Positions 10,229 through 38,831 of a DNA stretch of 49,105 bases are shown here, one piece after another. The notes beneath the pieces were generated by a model. The model worked only from the letters and a program-made list of their open reading frames with translations. It was not told the DNA's origin and ran no database searches. The stretch comes from an uncultured Klebsiella sp. (lineage in GTDB: Bacteria > Myxococcota_A > UBA796 > SXON01), in contig CAYHRZ010000001.1 in assembly GCA_964359125.1 (NCBI GenBank), forward strand, positions 1-49,105, written 5' to 3'. How positions within the stretch are numbered: position 1 is the stretch's first letter; every line of letters begins with the position of its first letter. A program made the translations under genes and the position numbers.

Positions 10229-11294
10229 GCGGCGCGGAGTTAGCCCGTTGCGCTTGCAACGTCTGCCCCCAACGCTCATCGACGCGGACGGCGCGTTGTG
10301 CGCACTACAGCGCCGCGTCGCCACTTCGCGGTACCTGAACCCCACCAACGAGCCCGAGCTGCGCGCCGCGTTCGCCGCGGGCAAGCCAGTACGACCCACC
10401 TACGTCCCCGCGAGCTGGGCCGACGAGCACCTCCGCGCGCTGGACCGCATCCGGCCGCCACTGGGCCACGCCCTGGGCGCCGTCGTCGCCCAGGCGGTCG
10501 AGGAGTCACGGCTCGCAGCGCGGGCGCTTCGCGACCGCTCCGCCGAGGCCTTCGCCGCCCTGGGCGCGGCCGCGGGCTGGGACGACCCGCCGGGGGTGCC
10601 GTCGCCGCCCCCGTTCCCCGCCCGCGTCGCCGACGAAACCCGCCTGGGGGCCCCTGTCCTCGCGGATCACCTCGCAGCGGCCTTGCGCGCCCGGCGCCTG
10701 GACCGCTGGCGCGTGGAGATGGACCCGGTGATGAGCGCGCGCGTGCTGGTCGACGCGCCCCGCTTCACCGTCCGCGTCAACCCGCGCGCCACCTGCACCA
10801 CGACGGAACTCCACGCGCTGGAGGCGCACGAGATCGACGTGCACGTGGCTCGCGCCGAGGCCGGAAGCCGACAGCCGCTGGCGATTTTTGCCCACGGCCT
10901 CCCCGGCTCGCTCCCCACCGAGGAGGGGCTGGCGCTGCACGCCGAGGCCGAGGTGGTCGGGCTGCCGAGTGGGGCCCTCGCCCGGCTCGAGAGCATGGCG
11001 GCCATGGCCCTGCGCGCCCAGGACATGGGCCTCACCGAACTGGTGCGGGAGGCGGCGCCCAGGGTGGGGGCCGCGACGGCACTGGGCATGGCGCTCCGGG
11101 TGAAGCGCGGCCTGTCCAACATGGAGCAGCCGGGGGCCTACACCAAGGACCGGGTGTACTGGCTCGGCGTCCTGCGCGTCGCGGACTACCTCCGGCGCGG
11201 GGGCGCGCGCGACCTGCTCGCCGTCGGCAAGGTGGGCATCCAGCACCCCGTGGGCGACTGGGTGGAGCGCGGGTGGGTCAGTCCACCTGGATGA
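10227..11294 (+). CDS. DUF1704 / 'QEGLA-motif' protein (tyrosine/phenylalanine carboxypeptidase-like metalloprotein)
   Basis: HEIDVHV ... [12 protein letters not shown] matches the HExxxH + (Q/E)EGLA signature of this family. The start is uncertain (ATG 10215 or 10227, or a later TTG). Confidence 0.7.
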
Positions 11295-12039
11295 GGGCGC
11301 CGAAGCCCGGCAGTTCTTCCTTCAGCAGCGCCTCCACGCCCATCTTCATCGTCATCACGCTCGACGGGCAAGACTGGCAGGAGCCCACGAGCTTCACGTA
11401 CACGTCGTTGTTCTCGATCTTCAGCAGCCGGATGTCACCGCCGTCGCCCTGGAGGGCCGGGCGCACCATCTCGTCGAACAACTCCTGCACCTGCTCCATC
11501 GAGAAGGCCGGTGCGCCCACCTCGTCCTGGCCTGCGGGCGCGGGCGCCGCGGGCGCCGCTTGCGCCGCTTGCGCCGGTTGGGCGGGGGCGGCGGCCGCAG
11601 GCGGGGGCGCGGCCTCGGCGCTGGCAACGGCCTCGGCCGCGTCGGCCTTCTTCCTCGAGGGCTTCTTCGCCTTCTTCACCGGCGCCGCGTCTGCGGCGGG
11701 CGCAGCGTCGGCACTCGGGGCGTCCTCGGCGACGGGGGACGCCTCCGCGGCCGGGGCCGCCTCCGCGACCGGGGCTGCCTCCGCGACCGGGGCTGCCTCC
11801 ACGACGGGCGCCGCCTCCGCGACCGGGGCGGCCTCCGCGGCGGGGGCCGCCGCCACGACGGGCGCCGCCTCCACGACCGGAGCCGCTTCCGCCGCGGGCG
11901 GGGGCGGCGTCCCCACTGCTGCCGCGGCGACCGGCGCGTCCCGCCACGCGGGGGGCGGCGGCGGGCTCGCGGGCGGCTGGGGGTGCTCGCGCAGCCCAAG
12001 AACACGCTTGATGCCGGACTTTAGGGCGCTACGAATCAT
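11278..12039 (-). CDS. Nfu/NifU-C-terminal-domain Fe-S cluster protein with a long Pro/Ala/Glu repeat N-terminal extension
   Basis: The C-terminus [47 protein letters not shown] is the Nfu CxxC domain. The N-terminal 170 aa contain (EAAPVA)n repeats. Confidence 0.85.
11741..11902. repeat. Nine tandem imperfect 18-bp units (consensus GCCTCCGCGACCGGGGCY)
   Basis: Read directly. The units are in frame on the minus strand and encode the (E/A)AAPV(A/V) repeats of the Nfu-like protein. Confidence 0.9.
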
Positions 12040-14212: not shown

Positions 14213-15493
14213 TTACCCGCGGCGACGCCGGGCGGCGAGGAGCGCCGTCGCGGCGGCGATCATCCCCGGAGCGGCCGCGTTGTCGCAACCGCAGCCGGTG
14301 CCCGCGCTCTGCAAGCCGGGGTCGTCGCCCCCGGGCGAGTCGCCATCGAGGTCGCCGTCGTCGTCCCAGCCGTCCTCCTCGGTGGGCGTGTCGCGACCGT
14401 CGCAGAAGCTCTCCACGCAGGAGTAGTTCTGCTCGTAGTCGTCGGCGTAGGCGGTCACCATCGGCTCGTAGAGGCCCGAGCCGTAGAGCACGAGGTCCGT
14501 CTCGGCCTGCTCCGGCGTGTAGCGCATGTGCAGCCGCGTGAGGTGGTGGTTGTCGGCGTTGCCCCGGAAGCCCAGCGCCTCCACGTCTTCCTCGGTGATG
14601 TACACCCCCGAGCAGGGGTTGCAGTCGTAGAAGCCGCCGGCAAACTCCACCGTCCAGCCGGCGTCGCCCACCGCCGTCCACGCCTTCGTGTAGAGGTCGT
14701 CGTAGAACACCGAGAAGTCGTCGGCGTTGGGATCCCCCCAGATACACTTGTCGGGCACCTCGAACTCTGGGTAGTTCGAGATCGCCGCGCGGGCGGGGTC
14801 GTTGGCGCCTTCGAGCTCGGTGAAGGCGTAGATGATCATGTCTTGTTCGCCGGGCGAGTTCAGCGTGGCCAGGCGCAGGGGGATGGCGAAGAGCTCGCTG
14901 TCGTACGACACTTGCAGCGGCGAGAGCGGCACCCCGGTCGCGACCGCAGCCTCCTCCGCCACCTTGGCCGCGAGGAAGTAGCTCCCAGCCTCGATGTACT
15001 CGGCCAGGCGCTCGTCGGCGCCGGTGGGCAGGTAGTAGGCGTTGGCGTCGAGCCAGGCCCCGAGGCTCGACGACTCCTCGGCGGAGAGGATCACCACCTG
15101 GTACTCGCCCACGAGGTACTCGGCCTCCACCGTCACCCCGGTGTCGCCCGCGTCGGCGGTGTCGGACTGGGGGCCGCCGTCCTCGTAGGCCACGCCCGAG
15201 TCGGTGTTCGGGCAACCGGCGTCGTTCACATGCCGAGGGGCGCTGTACCCGTCCAAGCGGGCGAAGATCGACGGGTCCAGGGTCGTGACCTCGTCCTGGG
15301 CCAGCACCTCGGGCACCGGCATCACCAGCGCGAAGGCCTGGGGGTCGCCCACCGGGTTGATCGACACCGAGAACGTGGTGCGGTTGTCCTGGCGGACGAT
15401 GGCCACTTGCGCCGTGTCGAACGACAAGCTCGACGGCGTGCCGGTGGCGACGGTGGGACAGGGCAAGGCGAGCGAGACGGCGAGAAGGAGCAC
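14213..15493 (-). CDS. Secreted DUF2330-like protein with MYXO-CTERM-like sorting tail
   Basis: GTG 15493 is preceded by GGAGGG. It has a signal peptide, an acidic C-terminal linker, and the tail GTGCGCDNAAAPGMIAAATALLAARRRRG (Cys motif + TM + Arg cluster). Confidence 0.75.
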   Translation of the reverse strand: MLLLAVSLALPCPTVATGTPSSLSFDTAQVAIVRQDNRTTFSVSINPVGDPQAFALVMPVPEVLAQDEVTTLDPSIFARLDGYSAPRHVNDAGCPNTDSGVAYEDGGPQSDTADAGDTGVTVEAEYLVGEYQVVILSAEESSSLGAWLDANAYYLPTGADERLAEYIEAGSYFLAAKVAEEAAVATGVPLSPLQVSYDSELFAIPLRLATLNSPGEQDMIIYAFTELEGANDPARAAISNYPEFEVPDKCIWGDPNADDFSVFYDDLYTKAWTAVGDAGWTVEFAGGFYDCNPCSGVYITEEDVEALGFRGNADNHHLTRLHMRYTPEQAETDLVLYGSGLYEPMVTAYADDYEQNYSCVESFCDGRDTPTEEDGWDDDGDLDGDSPGGDDPGLQSAGTGCGCDNAAAPGMIAAATALLAARRRRG

Positions 15494-15612
15494 GAGGCCC
15501 TCCGGGGGACAGGCCCCTACTATGCCTCCGGCGAGCCCTGGTCGCCAGCCTCCCCCGCCCGGCCCGCGATCCGCTCCCCGAGCTTCACGGGTTGGCCGGG
15601 GGTGGTGGTTCG
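15487..15612. repeat. Direct repeat copy A (left boundary of the inserted cassette)
   Basis: 40 nt are identical to 18638-18677, followed by ~85 nt at ~80% identity to 18678-18763. Confidence 0.85.
15520..15606 (-). pseudogene. Displaced remnant of the psd 3' end (28 codons + stop)
   Basis: Translates to TTPGQPVKLGERIAGRAGEAGDQGSPEA*, compared with the genuine psd C-terminus ATPGQPVKLGERIAVRVGEAGGAPPEGA*. No upstream psd body is present. Confidence 0.7.
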
Positions 15613-15620
15613 TCTGGACG

Positions 15621-15863
15621 CTAGTCGGACGGACATTTCTCGAGGTCGTAGTACTCTTCGGTCAGGCAGTCGCAGGCCACGTTGACCGGTCGCCAGCGGC
15701 AAGCGCCGTCCACGTTCGAACACCCACAGTAGAACGTCGTTCCACAACCGTCGCAGCGGTAGTCGTACTCGCTGCTGGCGTCGCAGATCGCCAACGGCGC
15801 GAGCCGCCAGCAGGGTGCGTCGTCGCCGCAGGCCAAGAGCGAGGTGGCGACGGTCCAGACCAT
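15621..15863 (-). CDS. Small Cys-rich lipoprotein, paralog 1 (80 aa)
   Basis: MVWTVATSLLAC lipobox, then about 10 Cys in a pattern shared with the neighbouring paralog (Y-x-CDGCG-x-T...C-x-C...C-x-W...CDC-x-T-E/D-E). GC3 is lower than in neighbouring genes. Confidence 0.65.
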   Translation of the reverse strand: MVWTVATSLLACGDDAPCWRLAPLAICDASSEYDYRCDGCGTTFYCGCSNVDGACRWRPVNVACDCLTEEYYDLEKCPSD

Positions 15864-15938
15864 CAGGACAGCTCGCGGCCGACGCAGGCGTTGACTCTCA
15901 ACGTGAACCACCTCACGACCCGCAGTTCGGGCACGCAC

Positions 15939-16217
15939 TCAGTCGCCCTCCCCAAAGTCGTTACCGTCCCAGTAGCACTCGTCGCGAGACTCGTCTAGGC
16001 GGTGTTCATCTGTCACGCAGTCGCAGGTGATGTCGGACTTTAACCAATCGCACTCGATGCCTGGTCGGTGACAAGAACACAGCGACGTGCGCCCGCAGCC
16101 GTCGCACTGGTAGGTCTCGTGATTACTGTAGTCGCAGTCGAAGCTCGGCAAGATCGGCTCGCACTCCGCGTCGCCGTCGCAGGCCAGCAACGAAACGCAG
16201 AGCAGACAGACCGTCAC
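15939..16217 (-). CDS. Small Cys-rich lipoprotein, paralog 2 (92 aa)
   Basis: The GTG start overlaps the upstream stop (GTGA). VTVCLLCVSLLAC lipobox. The Cys pattern is conserved with paralog 1. Confidence 0.65.
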   Translation of the reverse strand: MTVCLLCVSLLACDGDAECEPILPSFDCDYSNHETYQCDGCGRTSLCSCHRPGIECDWLKSDITCDCVTDEHRLDESRDECYWDGNDFGEGD

Positions 16218-18130
16218 GCATCCTCTCCACAGCCCAGCGCCTCGGCGGTGTCCGGGCTCCAGCACGGCAACGCCGCGACCGTGGCCACCTGGCCGGGTGT
16301 CCCGTCCACCACTGTGTCGCAGTAGAGTGCGTGGTAGCGCAGCGTGCCGCTGTCGGTACTGCAACTCGCACAGTTGTCCAGGAACGCCGCGTCGGGGTTG
16401 TCGAAGTCGCCGCTACCTCGGCGCTCGTACGTGTACAGCGGAATGCCGAGATGCGCCCGGACGCGACACTTCCAAGCGTTCGACGCTGACTCGAAACAAC
16501 AGTGGTGGCCATGGGGGCAGTGGCCCCCTCCCAGGTACACGTGGCCGATCTCGTGGATCAGGGTCTCGCCATGGTCGGCCAGCATACACAGGACATACCG
16601 CGACAAGCGCTGCGCCGTGAGCAAGTACTCGGCGGCCCCGGCGAGGTCGCCCTCGTCGCCCAGGGCGTAGGCGTAGTCGAGCGCCAGCCGCGCCAGGTGC
16701 ATGATGCGATCCGCCACCAGGCCATGGTAGGCAAGCTGGTTGGGCGGGAACACCACGTTCCAGCTCCCGCCGAACGCGATCCCACCACACCCTGACTTGG
16801 GCGGCTGACAATCCTCGCCCGACTCCCGGCCGGTGTAGCAACCCTCGCTGCCCACCCAGCGCAGGTCCCAGTCGTCCCAGGTCTTCCCGTCGCACACTCC
16901 CGGGTTGTACCCCTCGTGGCACGTGTCAGCTAGCTTCCACGAGTGGCAGGGCTCGTTCACGGGGCCGTAGCCGCGCTGCGCGCTGGAGTAGTGGATGGCG
17001 AGGGAGCAAGACTCCCGGCGGCCATCGCCGAAGTACGCCTCGTGCCGCTCGGCACTCTTGCCCTCCAGCATCGCCTCGAGGAACTCCGGGAACTTCCGGC
17101 ACTGCGCGAAGGCGTCGTTGGTGTAGGGGTTCACGTCCTTGGTGTTGGCGTACTGCACGTAGGTGAGCACGAGCTGGCAGGCGTAGACGTGGAACCGGAA
17201 GGGCGCGCCCCAGCCGTCGTTCCAGAACTGGTAGGCGTGCTCCCACTCCCAGTCGTCGCGGTGCAGGTTGTAGCAGCCGAGCAGCTTGCGGAACACGTCG
17301 GGGTCGCCGCGGGACTCGGAGCGAAACGCGGCCCAGAGCACGTCGAGGGTCTGGTGGACCGAGTGGACCTTGCCGTGGGCCGCGTCGCGGCCCTGCCGGT
17401 ACACGTGCGTCCAGTCGAGCAGCCACGCCTCGTACCAGTCGAAGGGGATGGTGAAGGACTGGTCCCGGTAGCTGAACGATGCCACCTCCTCCCGGGCCGT
17501 GAGGCCAGAGGGCGGTGGCGCCCCGGAGAGCGGCGCCGGCGCCGGTGCCTGCCCCCTTGGCCCAGGCGCACCGCCGGGCGGACCAGCCTTCCGCGGGACG
17601 ACGAGCCCGACCACGTCGGCGAACGACGCCGCGGCCCGCGATCGAGAGGCCCGCGGGGCGAGCAACTGGGAACAGCCCCGGCCGCCAGCCTTCGGCAGTA
17701 GCCGCTCCCCCCTCGGCGACGTGGTCGCTGGCGGGCGGAGCAGCGACGCCGCCCGGGCCAGCACCTGCTCGGTGTGCGACGCGGCGAACGGGGTCGCGTT
17801 GCCCGAGGCGTCGATGCCGACGACGAGCCCCGGGAGCAGCCGCGACCGGGGCGAGGGACGGGCTCGCGGCGGGGGCAGCACCCCGGCCGGGTCGATCACG
17901 CCGTCCCCCGTCCACCCCACGCCGCAGTCAGGAGCCCGGGGAGGCGCCAGCTTGCGCGTGCGACGGGCGCGCCCGCGCGTCCCGGGTGGTCGCCCGAGGT
18001 TCACCGGCACGATGCCGGCTTCCCGGGGGTCCGTGGCTGGCAGCCCGGCTGCGCCGCCCGGCGCCACAGCGCCCTGGCCGCAGCCGCAACTACCCCCGCA
18101 GCCGCCCCCGCAGCCGCACCCCGCGCTCAC
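16214..18130 (-). CDS. Large Cys-rich protein with HExxH zinc-metalloprotease-like motif (638 aa), family not recognised
   Basis: GTG 18130 overlaps the stop of the 120-aa gene (GTGA). N-terminus is VSAGCGCGGGCGGSCGCGQG, followed by a ~250-aa Pro/Arg/Gly-rich region. The ~390-aa globular C-terminal part has more than 25 Cys and TLIHEIGHVYLGGGHCPHGHHCC. GC3 is consistently high in this frame. Confidence 0.7.
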   Translation of the reverse strand: MSAGCGCGGGCGGSCGCGQGAVAPGGAAGLPATDPREAGIVPVNLGRPPGTRGRARRTRKLAPPRAPDCGVGWTGDGVIDPAGVLPPPRARPSPRSRLLPGLVVGIDASGNATPFAASHTEQVLARAASLLRPPATTSPRGERLLPKAGGRGCSQLLAPRASRSRAAASFADVVGLVVPRKAGPPGGAPGPRGQAPAPAPLSGAPPPSGLTAREEVASFSYRDQSFTIPFDWYEAWLLDWTHVYRQGRDAAHGKVHSVHQTLDVLWAAFRSESRGDPDVFRKLLGCYNLHRDDWEWEHAYQFWNDGWGAPFRFHVYACQLVLTYVQYANTKDVNPYTNDAFAQCRKFPEFLEAMLEGKSAERHEAYFGDGRRESCSLAIHYSSAQRGYGPVNEPCHSWKLADTCHEGYNPGVCDGKTWDDWDLRWVGSEGCYTGRESGEDCQPPKSGCGGIAFGGSWNVVFPPNQLAYHGLVADRIMHLARLALDYAYALGDEGDLAGAAEYLLTAQRLSRYVLCMLADHGETLIHEIGHVYLGGGHCPHGHHCCFESASNAWKCRVRAHLGIPLYTYERRGSGDFDNPDAAFLDNCASCSTDSGTLRYHALYCDTVVDGTPGQVATVAALPCWSPDTAEALGCGEDA

Positions 18131-18489
18131 TCCTTCCACACCGAGTCGGCCAGCACGACCGGGCTCCCGGTGACCGTGCCGACCGCGACCAGGCGGATGA
18201 AGCGGAGGAAGTTCTCGCACCACATGTGCTTGTTGCCCGCCGCGCTGTTGTCGAGCACCACCTGGAGGTCCGCGCCGCTGGGGTCCTTCGCGTCGATGAA
18301 CGCGTCGTCCTCGTTCACCGCGGCGTGCTGCACGCGCAGGTAGGTGGCGGCCGACGTCCCGTCCTTGAGGCGGCGGAACTGCAACTCCCCTCTCGTGAAG
18401 GCGCCGGCGTCGAGCACGTCTTCCTTCGGGGTCTTGTAGCCGGTGGTGATGACGGTGGGTTCCAGGACTCGATGGTACAACGACGACAT
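18127..18489 (-). CDS. Hypothetical 120-aa soluble protein, first gene of the cassette
   Basis: ATG 18489 is preceded by GGAG. The sequence is non-repetitive (MSSLYHRVLEPTVITTGYKTPKEDVLDAG...HMWCENFLRFIRLVAVGTVTGSPVVLADSVWKE) with no signal peptide. I recognise no family. Confidence 0.65.
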   Translation of the reverse strand: MSSLYHRVLEPTVITTGYKTPKEDVLDAGAFTRGELQFRRLKDGTSAATYLRVQHAAVNEDDAFIDAKDPSGADLQVVLDNSAAGNKHMWCENFLRFIRLVAVGTVTGSPVVLADSVWKE

Positions 18490-18573
18490 GGGAAACTCCA
18501 GTGGACGGGTGAAGCGGTGCGAGGTACCCGAGGGACGGTCCCCCCGGCCACGCACCGGTCACACGGGCTAGCA

Positions 18574-18583
18574 GGGGGGGGGG
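18574..18583. repeat. Homopolymer G10 (C10 on the coding strand) in the cassette leader
   Basis: Read directly. It lies 85 nt upstream of the 120-aa gene start and 6 nt downstream of a TTGACA hexamer (minus strand, 18595-18590). Confidence 0.9.
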
Positions 18584-18637
18584 TCACCTTGTCAATGCAT
18601 CTGCCACATCCGTTACATCTCGTGACAATTCCACCCG

Positions 18638-18763
18638 GGAGCACGAGGCCCTCCGGGGGACAGGCCCCTACTATGCCCCCTCGGGAGGCGCCCCGCCAGC
18701 CTCCCCAACCCGCACCGCGATCCGCTCCCCGAGCTTCACCGGCTGGCCCGGGGTAGCCGTCCA
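18638..18763. repeat. Direct repeat copy B (right boundary of the cassette; overlaps the genuine psd 3' end)
   Basis: See copy A. It contains the psd stop (18671-18673), the 33-nt spacer, and the RBS+GTGCTC that in copy A starts the DUF2330-like gene. Confidence 0.85.
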
Positions 18764-19546
18764 CCGGATGGACCCCGGCGGAAACAGCAGCACCACCGTA
18801 CTCCCCATCTCGAAACGGCCGATCTCCTCGGCCCGCCCCAGCGGGTGGTTCACCTCGCGCTCCACCGTGTCGCGACCGCCGTTGTTGGACACCACGTCGG
18901 AGAACACCACCCGGATCCGTCCCACGCCGAAGGCCCCCACCAGGCACTCGGCCACCTCGCCGAGCTCGGTGTCGAGAAAGGCCGTGAGCCGCTCGTTACG
19001 ACTGAACAAGAACGGGATCTTCCGCGTGGCCGCCGGGAACACTGGCCACAGGGCGCCGGGCACGTACTGGAAGCGAGTGACGGTACCCGCCAGGGGCGTG
19101 TGAACCCGGTGGTAGTCGCGGGGCGACAGGTAGATCACCGCGTAGTGGCCTCCCTCGTAGCCCTCGCGCCCCGCCAGCAGTTCCCGCGCCGAGAAGTGTT
19201 GGGTGTCCGACTGGGGGATACGGTCGTCGACCACCGTGCCGATGGCGTACACCTTGCCGTCGCAAGGCGACACGATGGCGCCGGGGTCGCCGTCCACCGG
19301 CCGCACGCCGACCCGGAGCGGGCGGGTGAAGAAGGCGACCAGCGAGTCGTAGTCCTGGACCGAGCCCTCGCACTCGGAGAGGTCGACGTTGTACTTCCAG
19401 CAGTACGAGCGGATCACCCAGCCGAGGAGCGGCCGCGGCAGCCGGATTCTCGCCAGCGCCCCCATCCACCCCGACACCGCGTGCTTGGGCACCACCGACA
19501 AGGCCGAGATGATGAGCGCATCTTTCATCGCCGCGGCGGATAACAC
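18671..19546 (-). CDS. psd: Phosphatidylserine decarboxylase proenzyme
   Basis: FFTRPL, SPCDG, YLSPRDYHRVH and the FEMGST self-cleavage site. The start is either GTG 19546 or ATG 19528. Confidence 0.9.
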   Translation of the reverse strand: MLSAAAMKDALIISALSVVPKHAVSGWMGALARIRLPRPLLGWVIRSYCWKYNVDLSECEGSVQDYDSLVAFFTRPLRVGVRPVDGDPGAIVSPCDGKVYAIGTVVDDRIPQSDTQHFSARELLAGREGYEGGHYAVIYLSPRDYHRVHTPLAGTVTRFQYVPGALWPVFPAATRKIPFLFSRNERLTAFLDTELGEVAECLVGAFGVGRIRVVFSDVVSNNGGRDTVEREVNHPLGRAEEIGRFEMGSTVVLLFPPGSIRWTATPGQPVKLGERIAVRVGEAGGAPPEGA

Positions 19547-20592: not shown

Positions 20593-22998
<2,406 letters not shown>

Positions 22999-36690: not shown

Positions 36691-36763
36691 ACGCACACGG
36701 CCGGACTGGCGCACACCCGCGCCCGCGACGCCGCCACGCGCCGCGCCCGGCTGCCGTTCCTGT

Positions 36764-36778
36764 GACCCACGTGGGTCG
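36764..36778. repeat. CCCACGTGGG-core repeat, copy 4 (14-bp perfect palindrome GACCCACGTGGGTC)
   Basis: Read directly; intergenic. Confidence 0.8.
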
Positions 36779-36845
36779 TGAACTTCGAACCCAACGATGG
36801 GGCGACGGCAGGCCGCCAGCGCGAGGGGACGCCGCTCCCGGCCAA

Positions 36846-36864
36846 GCGCCCCACGTGGGTCGTG
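36846..36864. repeat. CCCACGTGGG-core repeat, copy 5
   Basis: GCGCCCCACGTGGGTCGTG; intergenic. Confidence 0.8.
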
Positions 36865-36959
36865 TGCCCGCTGCCTCACGATGCCCTTGCTCTCGCCCGC
36901 CCGCCGCGGGATCACCTCGCACTCCCTCGCGCCCCGCCCGCCGGATAACAGGCGTCACG

Positions 36960-38831
36960 ATGCTAACCCTCCTCGCGGGCTGCCTCGTCAATACCGCGCT
37001 CTACGAGCGTCGGGTGCAGGAGCTCTCCGACGCCGACCAGGACGGTTTTGTCAACCCCGCCGAGGGCGGCAACGACTGCGACGACGACGACGCTGCGGTG
37101 TACCCCGGCGCCACGGAGGTCCCTTACGACGGGATCGACCAGGACTGCGACGGCAGCGACCTCGACGACGGCGACAACGACGGGATCGAGGCCGAGGCCG
37201 CCGGCGGGACGGACTGCGACGACGACGACGACGACACCTTCCCGGGCGCCACCGACGCCTGCTACGACGGGGTCGACAATGACTGCGGCGGCGACGACGA
37301 CTTCGACTGCGACGGCGACGGCCACCGGGTCGACAGCAGCACTGGCGGCACCGACTGCAACGACGGCGACGCGACGATCTACCCCGGTGCTGTGGATTCA
37401 TGTTACGACGACGTCGACAGCGACTGCGCGGGCGACGACGATTTTGACTGCGACGGCGACGGCTACACCGAGAGCGACGGCGACTGCGACGACGACGACG
37501 CCACCCAGTTCCCCGGGGCCGACGAGGGCTGGGGGGACCTCGGCACCGCCAACGCCTGCGACGGCGCCATCGACGACCCGGTCAGCGCCTCGTTGGCCGA
37601 CGCCGACGTCATCGTCGATCCCCCCGCCGACTACGGCTACTTCGGATCCACCCTCGGCCCCGTGCACGACCTCGACGGCGACGGGATCGACGAGGTGTTC
37701 GTGTCTGCCCCCTACGCCAGCCCCGACGTGCCCTACCAGGGGGCGGCGTTCCTGGTCCGCGGCGCCGATCTCGCGGGCCACCTCACGCTCGACGCGACAC
37801 ACGACCAGTTGCTCGCCCCCGACACCTACAGCTTCCTCACCGCGCACGGCACCGGGGAACTCGAAGGCGTGGGCGGCGAGTTCCTCTTCGTGGCCTCTGG
37901 CGCCGCCGCCGACGGCGCGGGCGTCACCTGGGCCGTCGCGACCGGGAGCATCCTCGACGGGGGCGCGCAGGATCCCGCCAACGTCGCGGTCGCGACGTTC
38001 ACGGGCGCCGACGGTGACTACGCGGGCACCGCCCCTGTCACCGGTCGCGACATCGACGGCGACGGCGTGCACGACCTCCTCCTCGACGCCATCGGCACCG
38101 GCCGCGCGCTCGGTTTCTCGTCCCCCGGCGGCGGCGCGCACGGCGCTGACGACGCCGACTGGGTTTGGACGCCGTCGCCCACCGGCGACTACCTGATCCT
38201 CCGCGTGCCCGGCGATGTTGACGGCGATGGCACCGACGACGTGGGGATCACGCAGGGGCCCGACGCGGGGGACGCGGTGGGCGCGGCCCTGTACCGGGGC
38301 GGCGCGGGGCTCGCGGGAGGGGAGTTTGGGGAGGGGGCTGCGTTCTACCTGCTTGGGTCGCCCACGTTGGAGGCGGTGGCCGACACCGCTGCCGGCTCCG
38401 CCCTCGTTGTCCTGGCGTTTCAGGCATCGTTGTTTGTCGAGCCCCAGGAAGGGGCCACGTACGATCCCCTCGCGGGGGCCGACTACCAGCTCTTCAGGAC
38501 TGCCGACGAGGCCGCCTTCTCCGGTGCGCTGTGGAGCCCCTCGCTCGGAGCGGCGCAGGCGGCTCTCGTGCTCGCGGCCTACGCCCACCCGGAGGGCACG
38601 CAGACGGGCGAGTGCGTCGTGTGGCGCATGGGAGAATTCAGCGTCGACGACTTCTCGACCGACTTGGCGCTGCGCCTACGAGGCGAACGGCCCGGCGACC
38701 GCGCCTGCGCGGCGCTCAGCGTGGCTCCAGATCTCGACGGCGACGGCCGCGGCGAACTAATGGTCGGCGCCCCCCTTGCCGACGGCACGTCGGCGGACTC
38801 GGGTCGGGCCTACATCCAGCTCAACCCGTGA
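36960..38831 (+). CDS. Lipoprotein with MopE-like Cys-rich repeats and FG-GAP repeats (paralog of 20593-22998)
   Basis: ATG 36960, MLTLLAGC lipobox. Repeats are [27 protein letters not shown]-type. C-terminal FG-GAP units (DLDGDG...GAP). Confidence 0.85.

Follow-up and report, generated by a model that had tools for sequence, protein, structure and literature searches.

What kind of system is formed by a 120-aa soluble protein and a 638-aa cysteine-rich HExxH protein that are translationally coupled to each other and followed by two small lipoproteins? The question is raised by a locus in a window of 49,105 nucleotides (the whole stretch of DNA that was analysed), where positions 15621-18489 carry four tightly coupled genes on the minus strand: A, B, and the lipoprotein genes C and D. 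The A stop and the B start share the tetranucleotide GTGA at 18127-18130, and the B stop and the C start share another at 16214-16217. The first-pass annotation had read the set as one operon on the basis of these overlaps, and both overlaps, as well as the boundaries of A and B, were found where it had placed them. It had also left 75 nt before the last gene. This spacing holds if D starts at ATG 15863, but GTG 15938 abuts the C stop (TGAGTG) and is preceded by GGGAGGG at a distance of 8 nt; the C/D junction is therefore probably tight too. A GGAG Shine-Dalgarno sequence lies 8 nt 5ʹ of the ATG of gene A. The GTG of B is its probable start; the reading frame is open further upstream to 18562, and the homologues support the GTG. 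In the related locus L001, B begins with an ATG at 'MACGCGG', two bases past the A stop, and the orthologue of C also overlaps B by GTGA. Scans of 15400-18800 for sigma-70 promoter and terminator consensus sequences detected nothing.

Table 1. Features of the four-gene module and its borders (positions in the window).
Feature	Position	Strand	Remarks
Left direct repeat	15487..15603	.	Degenerate psd 3ʹ-end remnant abutting the DUF2330 gene start
Gene D	15621..15938	-	Small Cys-rich lipoprotein, C paralogue; GTG 15938 likely, ATG 15863 alternative
Gene C	15939..16217	-	Small Cys-rich lipoprotein; GGAGAGGA upstream; GTGA overlap with B
Gene B	16214..18130	-	638-aa multi-part protein, putative effector; GTG start
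Cys-rich C-terminal domain	16217..17488	-	B residues 215-638; putative Zn-dependent hydrolase; no known fold
HExGH...H-C motif HEIGHVYLGGGHC	16517..16555	-	B residues 526-538; putative metal-binding/catalytic
Ordered segment with LLPGφxφ motif	17741..17860	-	B residues 91-130, inside the disordered region
N-terminal Cys/Gly cluster CGCGGGCGGSCGC	18080..18118	-	B residues 5-17
Gene A	18127..18489	-	120-aa soluble jelly-roll protein; ATG start
Upstream non-coding region	18490..18637	-	Module-specific; presumed promoter region; between right direct repeat and A start
Right direct repeat, 117 nt	18638..18754	.	Final 81 nt of psd with its stop codon, plus the next 33 nt

The module forms a 3.15-kb segment among housekeeping genes and is bracketed by repeats of the 3ʹ end of psd (identified by PF02666, E 3e-55). 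The two copies lie 3151 nt apart, start to start, and share two sub-blocks of 98% and 89% identity. Since the psd 3ʹ end is repeated on both sides, the module looks like a small insertion; the island context of the first-pass annotation is no large island but this repeat-flanked segment. When metagenome contigs were scanned with an exact 23-mer of the repeat, only the contig of the source organism and one chance match in an unrelated gene were returned, and no uninserted psd-DUF2330 junction was among them, so it is the repeat itself that points to insertion. The neighbouring DUF2330 protein was scanned against NCBIfam for a MYXO-CTERM tag, which was not confirmed. Neither tblastn of A against 50,697 phage records nor tblastn with the B domain against plasmids gave a match, so the module is not obviously phage- or plasmid-borne in the collections searched.

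Relatives of the module were collected with an exhaustive profile search, which returned 198 B-family clusters, with P0002 and P0003 as close B homologues; the search for related loci used a trimmed alignment. Gene A stood upstream of B in all B loci examined (L001, L007-L009, L016, L017, L020-L022, L024 and L026-L029), and also before two distant B members that were picked arbitrarily, P0134 and P0094 (A-HMM E ~1e-29). A gene for a lipobox lipoprotein started at the B stop or overlapped it wherever downstream sequence was available (13 of 13 B loci), and L028 and L034 showed the same arrangement. The A-B-lipoprotein set was kept across genomes in wholly different contexts, which agrees with the self-contained accessory module that had been suggested for the window. 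We found no description of such a module in the published literature.

The lipoprotein gene was multiplied at several loci, with four or five paralogues in L016, two or three in L028, and four 525-bp units in L027, each made of a remnant of ~30 aa of the B C-terminal tail and a lipoprotein gene. Alternate units in L027 were near-identical and may partly be an assembly artefact. Whole loci were also repeated within genomes: Myxococcota MAG.533 had three and Deltaproteobacteria MAG M30B51 at least three, and IS elements interrupted or separated the module copies in such genomes. Between the window and L001, A was the best-conserved component (74% identity), followed by the B domain (62%), C (41%), the B N-terminus (39%) and D (27-28%).

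The hosts were labelled as uncultured bacteria of Myxococcota or Deltaproteobacteria. The distribution was patchy, with IS, integrase or resolvase neighbours at some loci. L007 had on its two sides an HsdS-like gene, a gene for a SNIPE/T5orf172 nuclease, and genes for resolvase and integrase; L017 adjoined VapBC, and L001 had an Abi_2 gene ~9 kb off. Genes of T6SS, eCIS, T1SS, CDI or other secretion systems were absent from the called neighbours within 6-10 kb of every locus examined and from the 49-kb window, so the association with T6SS or eCIS that had been considered for the module was not borne out.

The C-terminal domain of B was modelled by AlphaFold with pLDDT mostly >90 over 424 aa. 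This high-confidence model had no fold match among 350,542 PDB chains in Foldseek (best E 1.4, no peptidase among the matches listed). The domain is longer than the ~390 aa first assigned to it, and of the 27 cysteines of B it holds 20, not more than 25. Across the family, 14 of its cysteines and an invariant D474 are conserved. That neither A nor this domain could be placed in any family was confirmed by empty searches of Pfam, NCBIfam, PADLOC and PHROGs.

The HExxH motif, TLIHEIGHVYLGGGHC, was present as first described, with the third His 7 residues beyond the second. In the full form HEIGHVYLGGGH, this His lies one residue too far for the metzincin HExxHxxGxxH/D, and the motif of P0003 has three extra residues. 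The family consensus is HExGHxYxGxGHC. Residues H526, E527, G529, H530, H537 and C538 were conserved in 107-113 of ~113 sequences, and the cysteines C538, C544, C545 and C555 are conserved. In the AlphaFold model, residues 463-533 make a long helical hairpin, and the motif lies at its end; the zincin fold, in which an edge strand of a beta-sheet is followed by the active-site helix, was not found for B by Foldseek. Curated peptidase families in Pfam and NCBIfam gave no match at E up to 1.

A profile of three sequences gave two chance matches in the PDB (E ~1), and a profile of 115 sequences gave the archaemetzincins 3zvs, 4axq and 2x7m over 22 residues only, at non-significant E-values of 0.19-0.7. 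Archaemetzincins (M54) share with B a local HExGHxxGxxHCxxxC, that is, a third His followed directly by a Cys and then by more cysteines; in archaemetzincins the cysteines after the third His make up a structural zinc site of the Cys4 type, with the patterns HCxxxxCxM and CxxC. In B, by contrast, the third His comes one residue later, the protein is 2-3 times larger and the topology around the motif helix differs, and B matched neither Pfam M54 nor the archaemetzincin structures. The metzincin likeness noted at first thus did not become membership: there was no Pfam match and no fold match, and the 22-residue resemblance to archaemetzincins had E ~0.2. We propose that the domain is a Zn-dependent hydrolase; in view of the missing zincin fold match and the non-significant archaemetzincin link, it is the motif that carries this proposal.

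The N-terminal region of B showed no Sec or lipoprotein signal, consistent with the first reading that B has no signal peptide. The Cys/Gly cluster that had been noticed at its start was found in most long homologues as well: at least four cysteines fell within the first 35 residues in 50 of 70, with position 3-4 as the commonest start, and in L033 and L034 the cluster was encoded 5ʹ of miscalled B starts. It is possibly a metal-binding knot. The whole region spans ~195-200 aa, is rich in A, P, G and R, and is largely disordered with conserved short motifs (PPxxPxCGxG...IDPxG, LLxPGφxφ and RGERLLP-type repeats; φ, hydrophobic residue). The Pro/Arg/Gly-rich stretch had been described as ~250 aa of disorder; it is ~195 aa long, and residues 91-130 within it are ordered, with two strands and a helix predicted by AlphaFold at pLDDT 90-96. 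In this segment L98 was conserved in 76 of 93 sequences, P100 in 75 of 94 and G101 in 92 of 96, and we propose that the LLPGφxφ segment is an A-binding or trafficking motif. Pfam recognised no domain in the N-terminus, including no trafficking domain.

Protein A was predicted to be an all-beta protein with a confident jelly-roll fold (AlphaFold pLDDT 92.9). The structural comparison that had been recommended for it showed that its nearest structures are phage proteins: Foldseek returned small uncharacterised tailed-phage proteins (105-145 aa, BFVD) at TM 0.64-0.70 and phage cement proteins at TM ~0.5. A resembles both groups, the latter with the cement proteins of Bordetella phage BPP-1 (3j4u_H) and cyanophage Pam1 (7eel_H) as examples, in its size and its single jelly-roll (TM 0.5-0.7 over the two groups). 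It differs from them in having neither detectable sequence similarity nor phage structural gene context, and in being always beside a large cargo gene. Searches of A against PHROGs gave no match, no phage genes were found in A neighbourhoods, and the sole match among PDB sequences was an engineered protein without a valid aligned stretch. The A family consists of 36 proteins, none of which (0/36) has a Pfam domain; A is 108-120 aa long and without N- or C-terminal arms, and no Sec or lipoprotein signal was found.

A also preceded two cargos unrelated to B, one of 607 aa (L014/L015) and one of 1423 aa (L023). Both carry an N-terminal GxφφxP motif related to the LLPGφxφ of B, and the L023 cargo has 35 copies of it in its first 700 aa, compared with 0.9 expected from shuffling. 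No small Cys-rich lipoprotein was encoded directly downstream at the two non-B cargo loci.

C and D both have a hydrophobic signal that ends in a lipobox ([LVI][ASTVI][GAS]C). C has the signal VTVCLLCVSLLA|C with the lipobox ...CVSLLA|C and a mature form of 80 aa with 11 Cys; if translation begins at GTG 16217, its signal has 12 aa, which is unusually short. D has the lipobox ...VATSLLA|C, a mature form of 69 aa with 11 Cys, and 38% identity to C. Most of the small lipoproteins have an odd mature Cys count of 7-11, as would fit if one Cys is lipidated and the others, even in number, pair in disulfides. For C and D, searches of Pfam, NCBIfam, PADLOC and PHROGs were without a meaningful match; the matches of D to TIGR04292 (E 0.19) and of C to phrog_3641 (E 0.03) were taken as noise of Cys-rich composition. 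C is a putative immunity protein or inhibitor.

We propose that the four genes make up an antagonism module that is mobile and self-contained and belongs to a type not described before. The reading of B as an envelope-acting metalloenzyme effector, of A as its carrier or adaptor and of C and D as lipoprotein immunity proteins has, in our estimate, an even chance of being right. The first-pass annotation had offered toxin/effector, chaperone/adaptor and immunity as one option; comparative evidence favours it, namely the lipoprotein gene always directly 3ʹ of B, the arrays with B-3ʹ remnants, the several loci per genome, the lipoproteins as the fastest-diverging components, and the pairing of A with other cargo types. 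What we infer within it is toxicity, immunity, metal catalysis, binding of the motifs by A, and the route of export or delivery.

Under this effector/immunity reading, B would be synthesized with no Sec or Tat signal and would act on a recipient cell or a neighbour, in its envelope or periplasm. Its HExGH helix, with His537 as third ligand, would bind Zn, and Glu527 would be the general base. The 14 family-conserved cysteines suggest an oxidising compartment as the place where the domain folds and works, although they could instead bind metals in the cytoplasm, which would speak against the reading. The first ~210 residues, with the Cys/Gly knot and conserved linear motifs, would be the delivery region, and A would bind these motifs and, as a carrier or adaptor, serve in release or delivery. 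The periplasm-facing, disulfide-rich C and D would bind and neutralise B and thereby give immunity to self or kin. Since no secretion machinery lies nearby, the reading leaves the route of the signal-less, Cys-rich B to the envelope unexplained.

A precedent is the C-terminal domain of VgrG2b (Tpe1-Tpi1; DUF4157, T6SS), an HExxH metalloenzyme-type toxin domain that is toxic solely in the periplasm and has its immunity gene just downstream, encoding a periplasm-exposed lipoprotein or membrane protein (PMC6899460); B, too, is directly followed by a lipoprotein gene. B is, however, unrelated to it in sequence or fold (Pfam E up to 1, Foldseek) and is neither fused to nor near VgrG, PAAR or Hcp. 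Unlike these effectors, B begins with a Cys/Gly cluster and comes with a jelly-roll partner; its domain is ~424 aa long, with 14 conserved Cys. Polymorphic toxins such as CDI and Rhs (Zhang et al. 2012, PMC3482391) share with the module the immunity-like gene directly downstream, tandem arrays of toxin-3ʹ remnants with immunity genes, several loci per genome, mobility, and the combination of one upstream partner (here A) with different cargos. The array remnants of the module are only ~30 aa long and therefore look like recombination scars rather than spare toxin tips. Classical polymorphic toxins have a conserved N-terminus and a variable C-terminal toxin, whereas B is conserved at its C-terminal domain and of low complexity at its N-terminus, and the module is without a known trafficking domain or a link to a secretion system (T5SS, T6SS, T7SS, PVC/eCIS).

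Colicin-type bacteriocins are signal-less, have a disordered Gly-rich N-terminus with linear motifs, lie in an operon with a small lipoprotein, and in some cases act in the periplasm. Their lipoproteins are lysis proteins of ~30 aa, whereas those of the module are Cys-rich and 70-120 aa long; no homology was found, and we know of no colicin partner equivalent to A.

We regard a broader reading as unlikely: A, the GxφφxP motifs and the N-terminal knot of Cys and Gly would form an unrecognised protein-delivery route that is independent of known secretion systems. A, with its structural likeness to phage jelly-roll proteins, would recognise repeated motifs in the disordered N-termini of several unrelated effector classes, and would carry or package signal-less, disulfide-rich effectors out of the producing cell and into its neighbours' envelope.

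B may also be a secreted or surface metalloprotease that serves its own cell in nutrition, predation on macromolecules or envelope remodelling, with C and D as inhibitors, A as a folding or export chaperone, and no killing. The serralysin/Inh paradigm, in which a periplasmic inhibitor prevents premature protease activity, is a model for this arrangement, and the predicted hosts, Myxococcota, are protease-rich predators. The invariant HExGH...H motif, the small disulfide-rich lipoproteins directly 3ʹ of B and the coupling of all genes in one operon are as such a protease would have them. Lipoprotein arrays with B-3ʹ remnants and several divergent loci per genome are, however, poorly explained by a housekeeping protease, and the patchy distribution beside IS, integrase and resolvase genes, the fastest divergence in the lipoproteins, and the lack of a signal peptide and a T1SS also argue against it; we consider it unlikely.

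An anti-phage or abortive infection system, in which A senses or mimics a capsid component, B is a cytoplasmic, infection-activated metal-cluster protein or protease, and the lipoproteins are membrane effectors or regulators, seems to us quite improbable. The closest folds of A are phage proteins, the module is patchy and mobile, and the neighbours of L007 (defence/mobile genes), L017 (VapBC) and L001 (Abi_2) would suit it. PADLOC-DB was nevertheless empty for all four proteins at E up to 1, most loci including the window lie outside defence islands, and exported disulfide-rich lipoproteins and arrays of toxin-3ʹ remnants are typical of envelope effector/immunity pairs and not of known defence.

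A protein assembly has an equally slight chance. Here A would be a jelly-roll subunit of a shell, sheath or fibre, and the downstream protein would be cargo or scaffold by way of its GxφφxP repeats, in a nanocompartment-like or virus-like particle that possibly packages an enzyme. A is a minimal jelly-roll like viral capsid proteins, cement proteins and Ena fibre subunits, it is the most conserved component, and the three unrelated kinds of cargo have N-terminal motif repeats (35 in L023) that recall targeting peptides. A is, however, only 108-120 aa long and without terminal arms, the obligatory lipoproteins are left unexplained, and we know of no bacterial compartment with a jelly-roll shell. 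This assembly is compatible with the effector/immunity reading, as A could be the vehicle of the effector.

Four narrower assignments were dropped: an encapsulin (A is a 120-aa jelly-roll and not an HK97 fold, with no Pfam match), an Ena-type fibre (neither conserved cysteines nor an N-terminal connector occur in A), a T6SS cargo effector (no T6SS linkage, while delivery by a distant T6SS may still apply), and a RiPP cluster whose precursors would be the small proteins (these have lipoprotein signals and 70-120 aa).

Should the effector/immunity reading hold, the module would bring a new effector domain, whose confident 424-aa model matches no PDB fold and whose HExGH...H-C site is invariant, together with a new family of Cys-rich lipoprotein inhibitors and a new kind of accessory protein, from uncultured Myxococcota/Deltaproteobacteria lineages whose weaponry is poorly known. 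A module without a recognisable secretion partner raises the testable question of how a signal-less, disulfide-rich B reaches the envelope, and at 3.1 kb it is small enough to be synthesized and tested as one unit. Whatever the function, annotation can now draw on two definable protein families, A with 36 proteins and B with 198 clusters, and on one motif class.

The four genes A (a small jelly-roll protein), B (a putative effector with an HExGH...H-C motif), C and D (both lipoproteins) follow one another on the minus strand, all in the same orientation. The first-pass annotation had reported two GTGA overlaps, and both were present: the one at 18127-18130 is common to the A stop and B start, and the one at 16214-16217 to the B stop and C start. 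It had also started D at ATG 15863, 75 nt past C. We prefer GTG 15938, which abuts the C stop (TGAGTG), is preceded by GGGAGGG 8 nt upstream and gives D a signal peptide whose charged n-region is normal, so the C-D junction is probably tight as well. The start of B was assigned by inference because its frame is open upstream as far as 18562. The placement is supported by homologous sequences: B of L001, the closest relative locus, starts with ATG at MACGCGG, 2 bases past the A stop, and the Cys/Gly cluster lies at the very N-terminus of B throughout the family.

Coordinates of features in the window and in loci recovered from other genomes
Feature	Sequence	Position	Strand	Remark
NifU-domain gene	window	11278-12039	minus	
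DUF2330 gene	window	14213-15493	minus	downstream of module; adjoins left repeat copy
DUF2330 protein C-terminus	window	14213-14300	minus	
117-nt repeat, left copy	window	15487-15603		
Gene D	window	15621-15938 or 15621-15863	minus	80-105 aa; start GTG 15938 or ATG 15863
Gene C	window	15939-16217	minus	92 aa; GTG start
Gene B	window	16214-18130	minus	638 aa; GTG start
Gene A	window	18127-18489	minus	120 aa; ATG start, GGAG 8 nt upstream
117-nt repeat, right copy	window	18638-18754		
psd	window	18671-19546	minus	upstream of module; PF02666, E 3e-55
MopE-type/FG-GAP paralogues	window	20593-22998, 36762-38831		
1423-aa cargo gene	L023	1129-5400		
LRR lipoprotein gene	L008	3067-4419		LRR_EndoS, E 4e-7
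LRR lipoprotein gene	L009	3032-4453		LRR_EndoS, E 4e-7
Tandem array	L027	2481-4755		four 525-bp units
Transposase gene	L024	11563-12207		IS-type
Transposase gene	L026	9632-10324		IS-type
Second A-family gene region	L020	10630-12406		E 5e-16, A HMM

The two copies of the direct repeat exactly bracket A-D at a spacing of 3151 nt, and their sub-blocks are 98% and 89% identical. The right copy is the true psd 3' end plus 33 nt running into the DUF2330 GTG, and the left one, abutting DUF2330, is a degenerate remnant. Judged from the signature left by this bracketing repeat of the psd 3' end, the module looks like a 3.15-kb segment inserted where psd meets DUF2330. No integrase gene was found inside the insert, nor was an uninserted psd-DUF2330 junction found in metagenomes. 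The G+C content was 61% for C and 65% for D versus about 70% in the neighbours (window, about 71%). Elsewhere the 49-kb window codes for housekeeping and metabolic functions, among them a DEAD-box helicase, chorismate synthase, an RsmB-like methyltransferase, arginase, molybdo-enzymes, TldD, NifU and NUDIX.

When the four proteins were searched against Pfam, NCBIfam, PADLOC and PHROGs, none had a match at useful thresholds, in agreement with the earlier failure to place the 120-aa protein or the large domain in any family. B has no signal peptide and contains 27 Cys, 20 of which are in the C-terminal domain, where more than 25 had been counted at first. The HExxH followed by a third His was indeed present (TLIHEIGHVYLGGGHC), with the third His 7 residues past the second. 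In the AlphaFold model of B, built with a 115-sequence alignment, residues 1-90 and 146-210 are predicted to be disordered, residues 91-130 would form a short ordered element of two strands and a helix holding RLLPGLVVGI, and residues 215-638 have pLDDT mostly >90. In place of the canonical zincin beta-sheet/helix arrangement, the model has a long helical hairpin (463-533) with the HExxH at its end. Foldseek gave the model no match in the PDB (best E 1.4). Across the family D474 is invariant, H526, E527, G529, H530, H537 and C538 are near-invariant, and 14 domain Cys are conserved; so many conserved Cys suggest that the domain works in an oxidising compartment. The 115-sequence profile matched only archaemetzincins in the PDB, over a 22-residue motif (HExGHv-lGlkHCsnnC; E 0.19-0.7), which may serve as a lead on the metal site and is not evidence of membership. 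Motif spacing, fold and family models did not support assigning B to the metzincins.

The N-terminal region of B carries a CxC...CxC cluster, and C5, C7, C15, C17, P64, C69, G72, L98, P100, G101, L131, P133 and P159 are conserved in it. It also holds the motifs GVIDPAG, RSRLLPG, SLLRPP and RGERLLPK (motif peptides RSRLLPGLVVGI and RGERLLPKAG). Short motifs of this kind were found in the N-terminal regions of two proteins without the B domain that are likewise preceded by A, of 607 aa (L014/L015) and 1423 aa (L023). The first 700 residues of the latter contain 35 copies of (R)G(E)φφxP(G), where φ is a hydrophobic residue and 0.9 were expected from shuffling; the copies look tandem-like, as (R)G(E)LIxPG. 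Its remaining 720 residues have no copies and no match in Pfam. A possible FG-GAP lipoprotein gene follows the 1423-aa gene.

A was modelled as an all-beta jelly-roll (AlphaFold, 36-sequence alignment, pLDDT 92.9). Its best matches in the PDB were weak (E about 2e-3, TM about 0.5) and comprised phage cement proteins (BPP-1, Pam1), Ena fibre subunits and viral capsid jelly-rolls, while the best in BFVD were uncharacterised tailed-phage proteins of 105-145 aa (TM 0.64-0.70, E about 1e-5). No sequence link of A to phages was found; its 36 detectable relatives are 108-146 aa long. Because A is the most conserved component and is common to three unrelated cargo classes, which are alike only in their N-terminal linear motifs, the role that fits it best is that of a carrier or adaptor binding these motifs, not that of an immunity protein.

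Mature C (80 aa) and D (69 aa) have 11 Cys each and are paralogues, 38% identical, with the common pattern CDGCG...C.C...C.W...C.C; L001 also has two lipoproteins. In all 13 B loci with downstream sequence, a gene for a lipobox lipoprotein starts right at the B stop or shares bases with it. These lipoproteins are mostly small and rich in Cys, the mature count being odd (7-11); many have Asp at +2 (CDGD, CDPD, CDES), which might matter for sorting. In L008 and L009, whose B proteins (764-772 aa) form the most divergent subgroup, a 450-aa LRR lipoprotein replaces the small one. Paralogues number four or five in L016 and two or three in L028. In L027, each of the tandem units past the intact B gene consists of a remnant of about 30 aa of the B C-terminal tail and a lipoprotein gene. 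The units are of two alternating variants, 64-72% identical, and alternate units are 99-100% identical, so the array could partly be an assembly artefact.

Close homologues of B were limited to two in a word-seeded search (51% and 34% identity). Searching exhaustively with a profile gave 198 representative clusters, of which 87 scored below 1e-30; most members are 500-750 aa long and have the domain C-terminally. Loci were recovered via B (L001, L007, L033, L034), via A (L008, L009, L014-L018, L028, L029) and by genome scan (L019-L027), and A and the B domain were confirmed with local HMMs. Conservation of the gene set, proposed as a check by the first-pass annotation, was borne out: the order A, B, lipoprotein(s) is kept in other genomes across entirely different neighbourhoods (AMP-ligase and xanthine dehydrogenase genes; HsdS-like, SNIPE nuclease, resolvase and integrase genes; VapBC; a ThiS/JAB/ThiF cluster; a fumarase gene). 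Two arbitrarily chosen distant B members (loci L033 and L034) had A upstream (E about 1e-29) and Cys/Gly N-termini upstream of miscalled starts. The hosts were labelled as Myxococcota, Deltaproteobacteria and Proteobacteria MAGs, and three as Enterobacterales, labels that are doubtful because of the high G+C. The organism of the window itself is from Hainich groundwater assemblies. Identity between the window and L001 was 74% for A, 62% for the B domain, 39% for the B N-terminus, 41% for C and 27-28% for D.

Single MAGs held three or more loci, and some loci were interrupted by IS elements. In L024 and L026, transposase genes are found within A-B modules or separating them; L024 has a frameshift in its first B copy, and L026 has an A gene interrupted by a stop and a B missing the N-terminal region, which shows that the loci decay and turn over. 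In L020, the A-B-lipoprotein set is closely followed by another, divergent A-family gene and then by a gene for an FHA-domain sigma-54 activator.

The invariant metal-type catalytic motif, the Cys-rich domain, the lipoproteins, the multiple loci per genome and the mobility together fit an effector/immunity module best, a reading to which we give an even chance. B, presumed to be catalytic and toxic, would have the cell envelope as its site of action, with C and D as inhibitors or as immunity proteins. Immunity is suggested by their being obligatory, periplasm-facing, directly downstream and fastest-diverging, and by arrays with toxin-end remnants. The module would work like a polymorphic effector/immunity pair, and a precedent for an HExxH enzyme with a downstream periplasm-exposed immunity gene is VgrG2b-Cter/Tpe1, a T6SS toxin that is toxic only in the periplasm and is neutralised by a lipoprotein or membrane protein exposed there and encoded just downstream (PMC6899460). 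Membership tests failed for DUF4157/Tpe1, T6SS cargo effectors, encapsulins and PADLOC defence systems. The export route is the most conjectural part. A would be a carrier or adaptor binding the N-terminal linear motifs; that A and the motifs together make a new delivery route is unlikely. Association with secretion systems had been suggested for checking; no T6SS, eCIS, T1SS or CDI genes were found near any locus, the loci being on short contigs, and no secretion-system genes in the 49-kb window.

B might instead be a self-directed protease held in check by C and D as inhibitors, a reading that the HExxH would fit and that we consider rather improbable. An assembly or compartment based on A, to which its capsid and cement protein matches might point, has a low probability as the main explanation and could coexist with the effector/immunity reading. 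An anti-phage system, for which PADLOC gave no match, is similarly improbable. No described counterparts of the B domain, the C/D lipoprotein family, the A family or the N-terminal Cys/Gly knot were found in the literature.

Several minor features were observed in the surroundings. The DUF2330 protein ends in ...SAGTGCGCDNAAAPGMIAAATALLAARRRRG, with a GCGC motif, a hydrophobic stretch and an Arg cluster, which we take to resemble a MYXO-CTERM sorting tag; an NCBIfam scan gave no match for this tag. The GCGC recalls the CGCG cluster at the B N-terminus. In the NifU-domain protein the N-terminal part is a long stretch of repeats rich in Ala and Pro, and several long spurious ORFs overlap this gene on both strands. 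Two large paralogues in the window have both Cys-rich metal-binding motifs of the MopE type and FG-GAP repeats, and FG-GAP proteins also flank both non-B cargo loci (L014, L023), possibly by coincidence.
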